Source of the DNA: an archaeon
GTDB taxonomy: Archaea; Nanobdellota; Nanobdellia; SCGC-AAA011-G17; GW2011-AR17
DNA: 64,000 bases
Reading direction: 5' to 3'
Assembly: GCA_018656555.1 (NCBI GenBank)
Contig: JABHZQ010000012.1
Location: forward strand, 28,080 to 92,079
The position numbers were made by a program, and so were the translations under genes. Below, piece by piece: positions 12,430-51,285 of this stretch (its first letter is position 1; each line of letters starts with the position of its first letter). The notes below the pieces were generated by a model. That model did no database searches and was not told the origin of the DNA. It saw only the letters and a list, made by a program, of their open reading frames with translations.

Positions 12430-12518
12430 AAGAAACTTAGTGTATTTGGGGTATATAAAATTACCTCAAGGAGTTCTGTTAAATAAAATTTATAAAGGCT
12501 TTTTCTTGAGATTGTTTT

Positions 12519-20673: not shown

Positions 20674-20749
20674 ATAAGATTTGTAAGAAATAATGTTTAA
20701 AAATGTTTTGAAAAAAATAAAAAAAGATAAATCCGTGAAAAGTCAGATT

Positions 20750-21019
20750 TTACCTTTTTTTCTTAACTTTTCTTTTTTTAACTTTTCTTTTTACAGCTTT
20801 TTTCTTCACTTTTCTTTTCTTTGCTTTTTTCTTCACTTTTCTTTTCACTGCTTTTTTCTTTTTAGCTTTTCTTTTCACTGTTTTCTTTTTAGCTTTTCTT
20901 TTCACTGTTTTTTTCTTCACTTTTCTTTTTACAGCTTTCTTTTTCACTTTTCTTTTTACAGCTTTCTTTTTCACTTTTCTTTTCACTGCTTTCTTTTTAG
21001 CTTTTCTTCGAACAACCAT
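20750..21019 (-). CDS. Lysine-rich tandem-repeat protein (approximately 9 copies of the AVKRKVKKK motif), probably nucleic-acid binding
   Basis: 89-aa ORF 'MVVRRKAKKKAVKRKVKKKAVKRKVKKK…'. SD-like 'gaggtgaggtg' lies 8 nt upstream of the ATG on the minus strand. The motif also occurs in the S3 C-terminal tail. Confidence 0.45.
   Translation of the reverse strand: MVVRRKAKKKAVKRKVKKKAVKRKVKKKAVKRKVKKKTVKRKAKKKTVKRKAKKKKAVKRKVKKKAKKRKVKKKAVKRKVKKRKVKKKR
20755..21000. repeat. Imperfect 27-bp tandem repeat array (~9 copies) underlying the Lys-rich ORF
   Basis: Repeated unit 'cttttctttttacagctttctttttca' and variants, contiguous with no spacers. Confidence 0.7.
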
Positions 21020-21232
21020 TTTATGAACACCTCACCTCTTTTTTTTTAGATTGCAGTATGCAATTTAATAATAAACATAGGTGGTTAATAGTTTAAAAAT
21101 GTTTTGATTTTAAAATTAACTAAAAGTTTTAATTATTGAAAAAATAACTATTGTTAAAATAGATTATTAACTATTGTTAAGAGGAATTTTTGATGCGGAA
21201 AACATATAAATTGATCAAAAATTGAAATAAAA

Positions 21233-30871: not shown

Positions 30872-32026
30872 TTGAATATGTTTAAGTTTTTAAAGAAGAA
30901 GTTATCAGATGCTGTTGGAGTCTTTAAGAAAGGTGTGGAGGAGAAGGGTGAAGAGGTTGAGGCTCCAAAAGTAGAGAAACCAAAGAAAGAGAAAAGAGTA
31001 GTTGAGAAACCAAAGAAAAAAGAAGTGAAGAAAAAAGAGGTAGTGAAAGAGGAACTAAAAGAAGAAGTAAAGGAAGTTAAAGAAGAGCCTAAGGAAGAAG
31101 AGGAGAAGGTTGAAGAAGAAAAACCAGTTGTAAAAGAAGAACCTAAGGAAAAGAAAGGATTTTTTGGTAAAATAAAAGAAAAGGTAACTACAAAAAAAAT
31201 TAATGAAAATCAATTTGATGAATTATTCTGGGAATTGGAGGTTGCTTTATTAGAAAATAATGTTGCTTTTGAAGTTATTGAGAAGATTAAAGAAGATTTG
31301 AAAGTTGAATTAGTTAATACTCCTTTGCAAAGAAGGAAAATAGAGACTATTATTCTTGATACTTTGAAGAAAAGTGTTGATGAAGTTTTAGAGTATGAAG
31401 ATTTTGATTTGGTAACAGAATCTAAGAAGAAGAAACCGTATGTTATTGTTTTTATTGGTGTTAATGGTTCAGGTAAAACTACTTCTATTTCTAAAATTGG
31501 TCATTTGTTGCAAGAAAAAGGCATGAGTATTGTTTTAGCTGCTGCAGATACTTTTAGGGCAGCTTCTATTCAACAATTAGAAGAACAGGGTAAAAAATTG
31601 GGTGCTAAAGTAATAAAGCATGATTATGGTAGTGATCCAGCTGCTGTAGGATTTGATGCTGTTAAGTATGCAAAACAAAAGGATATTGATGTTGTTTTAA
31701 TTGATACTGCTGGAAGGCAACATAGTAATATTAATCTAAGAGATGAGATGAAAAAGATAATTAGGGTTGTAAATCCTGATTTAAAATTATATATTGGTGA
31801 AATGATTTCTGGTAATGATTGTATTGAACAGATTAAAGAGTTTGATAAAGCTATTGATATTGATGGTGTTATTTTATCTAAGGCAGATGTTGATGAAAAG
31901 GGTGGAACTGCTATTTCTGTTTCTTATGTAACTGGTAAACCAATCTTGTTTATTGGGGTTGGTCAAGAGTTGCAAGACTTAGAAAAGTTTTCTAAAGACA
32001 AAATATTAAAAAATTTAGGTTTTTAG
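30872..32026 (+). CDS. ftsY: Signal recognition particle receptor FtsY with a K/E-rich N-terminal low-complexity region
   Basis: NG domain 'FIGVNGSGKTTSISK', 'DTAGRQH', 'LSKADVDEKGG'. Confidence 0.85.
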   Translation: MNMFKFLKKKLSDAVGVFKKGVEEKGEEVEAPKVEKPKKEKRVVEKPKKKEVKKKEVVKEELKEEVKEVKEEPKEEEEKVEEEKPVVKEEPKEKKGFFGKIKEKVTTKKINENQFDELFWELEVALLENNVAFEVIEKIKEDLKVELVNTPLQRRKIETIILDTLKKSVDEVLEYEDFDLVTESKKKKPYVIVFIGVNGSGKTTSISKIGHLLQEKGMSIVLAAADTFRAASIQQLEEQGKKLGAKVIKHDYGSDPAAVGFDAVKYAKQKDIDVVLIDTAGRQHSNINLRDEMKKIIRVVNPDLKLYIGEMISGNDCIEQIKEFDKAIDIDGVILSKADVDEKGGTAISVSYVTGKPILFIGVGQELQDLEKFSKDKILKNLGF

Positions 32027-40800: not shown

Positions 40801-40919
40801 AAAAACTTAATATCTTATATTTAAACCTTTCTATGTTTATTAACTAAAAAGTGAGAACATTCTGGGATTTAGAGTCAATAGAAACGTTTTTAAAGCAAAT
40901 CAATTTTAAGGAAATTTAT

Positions 40920-40992
40920 GTCCCTGTAGCTCAGTTGGTGGAGCATTCGGCTGTTAACCGAAAGGTCGCAAGTTCGAGTCTTGCCGGGGACG
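40920..40992 (+). tRNA. tRNA-Asn (anticodon GTT)
   Basis: Folds as acceptor GTCCCTG/CGGGGAC, D-arm GCTC/GAGC, anticodon stem TTCGG/CCGAA with loop CTGTTAA, T-arm GCAAG-TTCGAGT-CTTGC, discriminator G. No encoded CCA. Confidence 0.85.
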
Positions 40993-40995
40993 TAT

Positions 40996-41070
40996 GGCCC
41001 CGTGGCTTAGCCTGGCTAGAGCACTCGACTGATAATCGAGAGGTCCTGGGTTCAAATCCCGGCGGGGCCA
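40996..41070 (+). tRNA. tRNA-Ile (anticodon GAT)
   Basis: Acceptor GGCCCCG/CGGGGCC, anticodon stem CTCGA/TCGAG with loop CTGATAA, T-arm CTGGG-TTCAAAT-CCCGG, discriminator A. Lies 3 nt after tRNA-Asn. Confidence 0.85.
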
Positions 41071-41077
41071 GATTCTA

Positions 41078-50050: not shown

Positions 50051-50500
50051 ATGGCAAAAAAAGAACATTCAGCAAGTGTAATTGGAAGCAACCTCGATAT
50101 TTCGAAGAAGCATACAATAGAGATCGGTAATTTTATTAGAGGTAGGCTTCTTGAAAAGGCTAAAACTTTAATGGAAGGAGTTATTGTGAAAAAAGTTGCT
50201 GTACCGTTTAAAATATTTAACATGGATGTAGGCCATAAAAAAGGAAGAATAGCTGCTGGAAGATATCCAGTTAAGGCTGCAACAAGAATCCTTGGATTAT
50301 TAAACTCTGCTGAGAGTAATGCAGAAGATAAGGGTCTTGATATAGATGCATTGTATATTTCAGAATTTATTGCTAATAAAGGAAATGGTTCATTACACCA
50401 CGGAAGGCACAGAGGAAGAGCGATGAAAAGAACACATATAAAAATAGTGTTAGAAGAGAAAGAGAAGAAAAAGAAAGTAAAAGAGGAAAAGAAAAAATGA
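50051..50500 (+). CDS. rpl22: Ribosomal protein L22
   Basis: Cluster position; L22-like basic beta-hairpin region. Confidence 0.8.
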   Translation: MAKKEHSASVIGSNLDISKKHTIEIGNFIRGRLLEKAKTLMEGVIVKKVAVPFKIFNMDVGHKKGRIAAGRYPVKAATRILGLLNSAESNAEDKGLDIDALYISEFIANKGNGSLHHGRHRGRAMKRTHIKIVLEEKEKKKKVKEEKKK

Positions 50501-51285
50501 TAGAAAGAAAATTTGTTGCGGAAAAAATGAGAGACTTTATGGTAAGAACTTATATGTCTCAACATTTAGGTAGTGGAAAGTATAGCTCTATCACAATTAA
50601 AAAAACACCTTTAGGTGAAAAAGTTGTTATTTATACTGCAAAACCCGGATTGATTGTTGGAAAGAAGGGTGAAACTATTAAAAGTCTTACAAGGGCATTA
50701 AAAAATAGATTCAAAATGGAAAATCCACAAATTGAAGTTGCAGAAATTGTTAAACCTGATCTAGATGCCCAGACCATGGCTGAAACTATTGCAAATGTAT
50801 TAGAAAGGTTTGGTCCTAAGAGATTTAAATCCACAGGCTATAGAACTTTACAAAGAATTATTGACGCTGGAGCTATTGGTGCTGAAATCTTAATTAGTGG
50901 AAGAGGACTGCCGGGAGCAAGAGCAAAGAGTTGGAGATTCTATGCTGGTTACTTGAAAAAATCTGGAGATGTTGCTGTTTCACAAGTAAGATATGGCCAG
51001 AGTATTGCTAATTTAAAGTCTGGAAGTGTGGGGATTAAGATTAGAATCTCTCCACCAGATATCAGATTACCCGATAAAATTATAATTAAAGAAGATCCAA
51101 AACTAACTGTACAAGTAGAAGAAGTAACTAAGGAAGAGGGTGGGGAAGAGAAAAAGGAAACAAAAGAAGAAAAGAAGAAAACAGTTAAAGAGGAAGAGAA
51201 AAAGACAGTTAAGAAAAAAGCTGTTAAAAAGAAAGTGAAAAAGACAGTTAAGAAAAAGGTAAAGAAGGATGAAAGTAAAAAATAA
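50497..51285 (+). CDS. rps3: Ribosomal protein S3 with a Lys-rich repetitive C-terminal tail
   Basis: KH domain 'VVIYTAKPGLIVGKKGETIKSL'. The C-terminal tail is '…KKTVKEEEKKTVKKKAVKKKVKKTVKKKVKK'. Confidence 0.85.
   Translation: MIERKFVAEKMRDFMVRTYMSQHLGSGKYSSITIKKTPLGEKVVIYTAKPGLIVGKKGETIKSLTRALKNRFKMENPQIEVAEIVKPDLDAQTMAETIANVLERFGPKRFKSTGYRTLQRIIDAGAIGAEILISGRGLPGARAKSWRFYAGYLKKSGDVAVSQVRYGQSIANLKSGSVGIKIRISPPDIRLPDKIIIKEDPKLTVQVEEVTKEEGGEEKKETKEEKKKTVKEEEKKTVKKKAVKKKVKKTVKKKVKKDESKK

Follow-up and report, generated by a model that had tools for sequence, protein, structure and literature searches.

Discussions of archaeal chromatin usually centre on histones, Alba and a few folded proteins, and linker-histone-like polycations are regarded as bacterial or eukaryotic. 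The C-terminal domain of linker histone H1 and the protamines combine very high positive charge with low complexity, and act by neutralizing the charge of DNA and compacting it; the bacterial protein Hc2 (HctB; PF07382) is rich in Ala, Lys and Arg. A bacterial origin has been proposed for the H1 family (PMC9239181). The hctB gene, which encodes Hc2, carries an in-frame 108-bp VNTR of 2.5-4.5 copies that differs between strains (PMC3283677), and its product is believed to remodel and condense the chromosome (PMC13317200). In Pseudomonas AlgP, the KPAA domain binds DNA in vitro, its repeat number is rearranged between isolates, and it is predicted to be either disordered or helical around DNA (PMC9239181). 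In the literature that we covered, a limited set, we found nothing tying Woesearchaeota or DPANN archaea to H1-like or lysine-repeat proteins.

The locus compared here with those systems lies in a 64,000-nucleotide stretch of DNA, hereafter the window, which has a GC content of ~31% and an archaeal gene content (Pelota, an A24 prepilin peptidase, a HIT protein, a geranylgeranyl-reductase-like (GGR-like) oxidoreductase and an S3/L22 ribosomal cluster). Identical contigs come from marine samples (Saanich Inlet and Line P), and the host is a marine Candidatus Woesearchaeota (DPANN) archaeon. The list of open reading frames and their translations places on the minus strand an ORF of 89 codons with an ATG start, whose 89-aa product begins MVVRRKAKKKAVKRKVKKK... 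(Table 1). In the Tandem Repeats Finder output, its period-27 array scored far above every other repeat of the window; the runner-up (130) is located in the S3 tail. The array encodes nonapeptide units of the form [A/T]VKRK[V/A]KKK, and the whole product is laid out as MVVRRKAKKK-(AVKRKVKKK/TVKRKAKKK...)-VKKRKVKKKR. This 10.7-kDa protein consists of 49 K, 16 V, 12 R, 9 A, 2 T and 1 M; lysine and arginine together account for 61 of its 89 residues (69%), D and E are absent, and the net charge is ~+60. The ORF was called by gene callers at all nine places listed, among the 19 contigs that carry it, and at NCBI the accessions of the proteins encoded on either side are two apart, a gap suggesting that the ORF is annotated there too. 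The preliminary description of the locus, with about nine copies of a 27-bp unit encoding AVKRKVKKK repeats behind an ATG and a Shine-Dalgarno (SD) sequence, was accurate.

Table 1. Features of the repeat locus and of the bacterial proteins built from the same nonapeptide. Positions are those of the window; contigs are given where the feature lies elsewhere.
Feature	Position or contigs	Strand	Basis and remarks
CDS, 89-aa polycationic repeat protein	20750..21019	-	ORF list, translation, composition, syntenic orthologues with intact frame
27-bp tandem array, 8.6 copies, 84% matches; 9-codon units plus 5-, 10- and other in-frame variants	20773..21008	.	Tandem Repeats Finder score 284; codon-register layout
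SD-like GAGGTGAGGTG, ending 8 nt before the ATG	21028..21038	-	7-nt anti-SD match; GGTGA-type SD conserved in L009, L070 and L073
Palindrome TTGCATACTGCAA in the predicted ~48-nt leader	21051..21063	-	Conserved in the window, L009 and L070; first half also in L073
BRE/TATA-like promoter motif AAAACATTTTTAAAC, ending 72 nt before the ATG	21091..21105	-	Exact 15-mer; region conserved in all four orthologous intergenic regions
Promoter motif, second exact copy, 22 nt upstream of the ATG of the next gene downstream (A24 prepilin peptidase)	20695..20709	-	3' boundary of the unit
T-runs (TTTATCTTTTTTTATTTTTTT), archaeal oligo-T terminator-like, starting 19 nt past the stop codon	20711..20731	-	T-runs conserved there in L009, L066, L073 and L054
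Bacterial stand-alone repeat proteins	L052, L055, L058-L060, L065, L067, L068, L074-L076, L079, L081, L082, L087, L092, L093		42-57% GC contigs

We then considered the signals that surround the ORF. Its SD matches the archaeal anti-SD over 7 nt, tied for best; a match of this length is reached by only one of the 57 ORFs of at least 150 aa, and such a strong SD suggests efficient translation initiation. The promoter 15-mer occurs exactly twice in the window, once upstream of the repeat gene and once upstream of the A24 peptidase and, because the second copy precedes the peptidase, the repeat gene most likely forms a transcription unit of its own. Related BRE/TATA-like motifs precede other gene starts by 17-29 nt and the tRNA-Asn by 24 nt; this recurrence indicates that the motif behaves as a promoter in this organism. 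Motifs of the form AAA[AC]N0-2-T[AT]T[AT]TAAA end upstream of gene starts or of the tRNA-Asn at window positions 12485, 20709, 32056, 33016 and 40882. From the spacing of the promoter motif we infer that the leader of the repeat gene is ~48 nt long and carries the SD, and the data suggest that most genes of the organism are leaderless, which would make the repeat gene an SD-led exception. The palindrome in the predicted leader may serve as an operator or as a small hairpin; the predicted fold of the 5' leader was no better than those of shuffled sequences (z = 0.45).

Other sequence elements were observed around the gene. It is flanked at 20695-20711 and 21091-21107 by an exact direct repeat of 17 nt, which reads TCAAAACATTTTTAAAC on the minus strand and has a spacing of 396 nt. 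Each copy is promoter-like, and the pair could simply reflect the promoter consensus or be the trace of a cassette insertion or duplication. The repeat gene and the GGR-like gene are divergent, and the intergenic region that separates them also contains, at 21145-21190, two adjacent copies of an imperfect palindrome, TTAAC-N4-GTTAA, which are conserved in the sister strain and in contig L070, with one copy in L073; the pair is a candidate transcription-factor site. Rfam covariance models returned no match at the repeat locus, and only two tRNAs of the window reached gathering scores, both at 40.9-41.1 kb. These only Rfam matches of the window, tRNA-Asn(GTT) and tRNA-Ile(GAT), are adjacent at 40919-41071 and lie 1 nt apart.

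Conservation of the gene was assessed in metagenomes, where orthologues were recovered solely by a degenerate DNA pattern for VKRK[VA]KKK[AT]xKRK that returned 42 loci. Eight contigs encoding exactly the same repeat protein are 100% identical over up to 3.4 kb; they represent one clone and therefore provide no information on variability. In a sister strain (L009), the repeat gene occupies the same place, with flanking genes 87-92% identical at the nucleotide level. Both ends of the gene are conserved there and its interior is reshuffled with no net change in length, again giving 89 aa, and a second allele of the sister strain has exactly one 27-bp unit fewer (80 aa). The intergenic regions flanking the repeat gene (window 20674-20749 and 21020-21232) are 98.5% and 95% identical to those of L009, that is, above the values of the neighbouring coding genes. 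At a greater distance, four low-GC contigs (L054, L066, L070 and L073) each have an all-basic ORF (75 to 127 aa) that is placed and oriented alike, flanked by the A24 peptidase and the GGR-like gene and, further out, by Pelota or HIT; these neighbours are 43-68% identical to the window proteins, and neighbouring proteins across the contigs span 43-73%. Alignment of the orthologous loci brings their promoter motifs, SDs and T-runs into register. A further archaeal contig, L062, holds a 100-aa version in a different context, with aIF5A and TYW1 as neighbours.

The K-repeat ORFs that the preliminary description proposed to seek in relatives are thus present in the sister strain and in four distant syntenic contigs, and its view of the gene as expandable was confirmed for in-frame changes by the lengths of 89 aa in the window, of 89 (rearranged) and 80 aa in the sister strain, and of 75 to 127 aa in the distant orthologues. 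Repeat content varies between strains and always in frame, with the proviso that copy-number differences rest on short-read assemblies, which the array breaks. Contigs from two assemblies stop inside the array (L011, 1-177; L012/L015, 2-190), and close to its end L011 shows a GCA-to-GAA (Ala to Glu) difference that may be a sequencing error or a rare allele. When synteny of the GGR-like protein was followed in GTDB genomes, a sister MAG ('Candidatus Woesearchaeota archaeon') was the sole case with the repeat gene. No K-rich ORF adjoins the GGR homologues, of at most 51% identity, in 36 more distant genomes, and its absence there indicates that the gene is lineage-restricted.

Variation of this kind raises the alternative, also put forward in the preliminary description, that the array is non-coding, a hyper-variable minisatellite in which an ORF arises by chance. 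Repeat arrangement does differ between strains, with one allele a unit short; a 27-bp period preserves the frame automatically, and the antisense frames are open as well. However, the sub-unit indels are all multiples of 3 too, despite an A-rich tract prone to single-base slippage: units of 4, 5, 8, 9, 10, 13 or 14 codons occur, and every length change is a multiple of 3. The sense frame is free of stops in every orthologue, as against 3-15 stops in the other two same-strand frames, and it is intact in all nine copies examined (six complete and three cut by contig ends), which come from relatives whose flanking proteins are 43-64% identical. Start codon, SD, promoter and terminator are likewise conserved. 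Moreover, the xVKRK[V/A]KKK peptide is kept while its codons vary (GTG/GTT/GTA, AAA/AAG, AGA/CGA/AGG and ACA/ACT), and poly-A is avoided. The longest A-run measures 6-8 nt in each of the six orthologues versus the 10-12 nt expected from random synonymous coding with the lysine usage of the genome (69% AAA), and AAA-AAA-AAA encodes none of the 57 KKK windows; in this comparison, units within one gene are not independent of each other, and the six genes use different codon arrangements. Such avoidance would fit selection against slippage in a translated frame. An array that is variable but coding-like, with no frame-breaking indels among nine copies, leaves the minisatellite explanation highly improbable.

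A Phe-rich antisense ORF does exist at 20693-21049 (+). It was rejected as a gene: one antisense frame has a stop in L062, and the ORF has neither an SD nor a promoter. That antisense frames stay open carries no information, since a pyrimidine-rich strand rarely forms stop codons, and the initial judgement that the antisense peptide is implausible was borne out. Judged from its sequence, the repeat locus is a conserved, predicted protein-coding gene whose array turns over in frame, and the stand-alone, translatable Lys-rich repeat protein gene proposed at the outset is upheld by the ORF, the SD, the promoter motif and the intact frame in orthologues.

We also examined the proposal that the 3' end of the S3 gene was duplicated and then expanded into this gene. 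The S3 gene (50497-51285) matches Pfam KH_2 and Ribosomal_S3_C and its C-terminus reads ...KKTVKKKAVKKKVKKTVKKKVKKDESKK; the tail comprises ~50 residues, first K/E-rich and then K/V-rich. A 27-nt stretch of this tail, aaagctgttaaaaagaaagtgaaaaag at 51217-51243, is identical to one repeat unit at 24 of 27 nt, with no other unit matching well, and the best local DNA alignment between repeat gene and tail (38/46 nt, score 22) stands marginally above those of codon-shuffled S3 tails (p about 0.01-0.02). Yet the K/E-rich N-terminal coding region of FtsY (gene at 30872-32026, region at ~30.9-31.1 kb) reaches the same score of 22, that is, similarity to the uS3 tail does not extend beyond that of other K-rich coding DNA of the genome, and at a genomic GC content of 31% any two K-rich stretches will inevitably have AAA/AAG-rich DNA in common. 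Arg is missing from the S3 tail, which has a spacing of ~8 residues and encodes valine mostly by GTT; in the repeat gene, KRK is invariant, the period is 9 residues and GTG predominates among the valine codons. Furthermore, the S3 tail changes between near-identical strains (S3 is 262 versus 254 aa long in strains >90% identical), whereas the repeat gene has been retained over far greater evolutionary distances. On other low-GC contigs, much closer matches to the module (TVKRKVKKKAVKRKVKKKTVKRKAKKK) form the C-terminal tails of unrelated small proteins.

Of the resemblance claimed in the preliminary description, the shared motif and codons hold for one unit, at 24 of 27 nt, but not for Arg, period or Val codons. 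Duplication of the tail into an independent gene did not gain support, given the equal score of FtsY and the instability of the tail between strains, and we consider this origin very unlikely; the resemblance is treated here as putative convergence of basic low-complexity sequence. This genome tends in general to add basic low-complexity extensions to its proteins, as in the tails of S3 and of L22 (50051-50500, ending in EEKEKKKKVKEEKKK) and in the long K/E-rich N-terminal region of FtsY. A related situation concerns the Lys-rich, H1-like extensions of mosquito RpS6 and RpL23a, reported as independently evolved (Hernandez & Fallon 2007, as cited in PMC11764897). Those K-rich low-complexity tails resemble chromatin proteins, the same relation as proposed between S3 tail and repeat gene, but they are eukaryotic and fused to ribosomal proteins, whereas the repeat gene is archaeal and free-standing.

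Homology searches with the 89-aa protein gave few matches. A word-indexed HMMER search retrieved nothing at E <= 0.001 and three insignificant matches at E <= 10, and exhaustive phmmer against 1.84 billion representatives produced five matches, none of them an all-basic Lys-repeat protein. Three phmmer matches were inspected and rejected as unrelated proteins having internal repeats of other composition. The clustered protein collection contains none of the eleven Lys-repeat proteins that we looked up, including that of the window, which is present in the gene-position index. Low-complexity Lys-repeat proteins thus seem to be missing from this collection and, since it lacks all eleven, the HMMER negatives say nothing about distribution. 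Pfam and NCBIfam, searched at E <= 10, provided no relevant match, PF07382 HC2 and NF038053 hist_H1_lk_Burk included, and no match to ribosomal protein families. The winged-helix domain of linker histones H1/H5 (Pfam Linker_histone) was not found in the protein, whose entire sequence is repeat.

AlphaFold modelled one long helix over residues 2-88 (pLDDT 94.8), a prediction that is unreliable for a chain of charge +60 modelled without an alignment and that can at most indicate helical propensity on charge neutralization; it was not used for a fold search because a lone helix matches anything. The mean muH at the alpha-helical angle (100 degrees) was 0.10-0.11 in windows of 18 and 36 residues, revealing no amphipathic face.

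We next asked what such a protein might do. Small size, highly basic Lys-rich low-complexity repeats and in-frame variation in repeat number are all features of the functional H1-like class that the protein displays, with a composition that departs from classical H1-like proteins in being Val-rich, devoid of Pro and poor in Ala. The nucleic-acid-binding role suggested in the preliminary description is the most reasonable reading of this composition. Reasoning from composition and analogy, the best reading is that the protein would be an archaeal counterpart of the bacterial histone-H1-like polycationic proteins (Hc2, AlgP), and it is probable, although by no means certain, that this polycation without a globular domain binds a polyanion electrostatically, most likely genomic DNA. 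Binding would occur in bulk and neutralize the charge of the polyanion, with the chain folding into a helix solely upon binding. The number of repeats would set the length of nucleic acid covered and would itself change as the array gains, loses and reshuffles units in frame. The outcome would be a nucleoid-compacting or linker-type protein that parallels bacterial H1-like proteins, the C-terminal domain of H1 and the protamines.

DNA and RNA or ribosomal targets cannot be told apart from sequence; we favour coating of nucleoid DNA and regard action on RNA or the ribosome as a serious rival, possible if rather unlikely, in which the polycation would bind rRNA, serve as an assembly chaperone or act as an extra ribosomal protein that provides a basic tail in trans. 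What keeps a ribosomal link alive is that the same genome puts K-rich tails on S3 and L22, and the strong SD, the single unit match in S3 and the interaction of chlamydial Hc1 with RNA as well as DNA, reported in a reference cited in PMC13317200, point in the same direction. Against it, the gene lies ~27 kb from the ribosomal protein cluster (~48-58 kb) as a separate transcription unit, the protein matches no known ribosomal protein family, and its similarity to S3 is no better than that to FtsY.

A target other than nucleic acids, or work outside the cell, appears very doubtful. The polycation could tether polyphosphate granules, which the H1-like AlgP organizes (PMC9239181), or be exported as a cell-penetrating or antimicrobial peptide used by an episymbiotic DPANN archaeon on its host, and a prepilin peptidase does adjoin the gene in four of the five orthologous contigs. 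Nonetheless, this peptidase has its own promoter, and the N-terminus MVVRRKAKKK lacks a hydrophobic stretch and thus shows neither a signal peptide nor a class III (prepilin) signal. The protein has no amphipathic helix either. A membrane-active or secreted peptide is unlikely because muH is near zero and a signal peptide is missing, and the membrane-active/antimicrobial reading was rejected for the same lack of amphipathicity and signal peptide.

The DNA pattern also uncovered the nonapeptide outside the archaeal loci. Bacterial metagenome contigs (Table 1) encode stand-alone, all-repeat AVKRKVKKK proteins of 70-151 aa that start with MAAKKKAVKRK... and are built of the units AVKRKVKKK and AVKRKVATKKK. 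In the loci with neighbours listed, the bacterial repeat genes adjoin genes whose copies in L060 match ilvA, rpiA and the bacterial 5-formyl-THF cyclo-ligase (MTHFS). A further neighbour, with no family match, resembles what we take to be an EVE-domain gene. This set looks like a conserved H1-like gene predicted to be made from the same nonapeptide, and a bacterial AVKRKVKKK analogue scored E = 1.6 against HC2 and 0.52 against NF038053, far below the cut-offs. The bacterial proteins share with the window protein the nonapeptide and the all-repeat architecture, but differ from it in the higher GC of their contigs, other codons, an extra VATKKK spacer and another N-terminus. They surfaced because the search pattern demanded the motif, so that common descent and convergence are indistinguishable; as far as these predicted proteins go, the nonapeptide design is not peculiar to archaea, though the search pattern imposed the motif.

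Two further protein types carry tails of this kind. Proteins of 139 (L061 and L063), 136 (L077), 140 (L091) and 68 aa (P0015), encoded on 33-36% GC contigs, consist of one or two ~35-residue domains (…KREAGYLYYIDKKGNVCCAKMARGG) followed by a TVKRKVKKK/AVKRKVKKK tail. The ~35-residue domain had no match in Pfam or NCBIfam, no significant match among solved structures and no copy in the window. A conserved 53-aa protein, MPFKSQKQRAWMYKNKPKMAKKWEKETPKG.KLP.KVKRKAKKKATKRKAKKK, with a short tail of the same type was found in L056, L057, L071, L080, L084, L086 and L088-L090; it is probably of phage origin, since L090 and L095, a match from the viral collection, are both 38,747 bp long.

These observations invite a broader and decidedly tentative picture, by analogy, in which a Woesearchaeota clade would possess a dedicated, conserved and free-standing polycationic chromatin protein, the archaeal counterpart of the linker-histone C-terminal domain and protamines. 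Here, [A/T]VKRK[V/A]KKK would be a portable nucleic-acid-binding cassette, attached also to small DPANN proteins (the 'GYLYYIDKKGNV' domain), and marine bacteria might have reached the nonapeptide independently or exchanged it.

If the proposed role is correct, a DPANN Lys-repeat protein would add a simple charge-neutralizing component to archaeal nucleoid or ribosome biology. The gene would also be a tractable example of protein length evolving by in-frame repeat turnover. Genes of this kind break short-read assemblies and appear to be absent from the clustered protein collection searched, and trypsin-based proteomics would probably miss their products, in which one residue in every two or three is a cleavage site; for these reasons they are likely to be systematically overlooked. 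The advance would be modest, for the kind of protein is already known; its archaeal membership is new, and its function is read from composition.

Compared with the known systems, the repeat protein departs from the linker histone H1 C-terminal domain and the protamines in having neither a winged-helix domain nor S/TPKK motifs, and it is Lys-rich, whereas protamines are Arg-rich. Pseudomonas AlgP and PhaF are, like it, Lys-rich tandem-repeat polycations of variable repeat number, but they combine a folded N-terminal domain with a Pro-containing unit of 4 residues, KPAA, whereas the archaeal protein is all repeat, without Pro or a second domain. From Hc2, which is bacterial, it differs by its archaeal host, its Val/Lys/Arg-based units of 9-residue period and the lack of a PF07382 match at E <= 10; both are nonetheless small, very basic, low-complexity, Lys-rich prokaryotic proteins with an in-frame tandem repeat.
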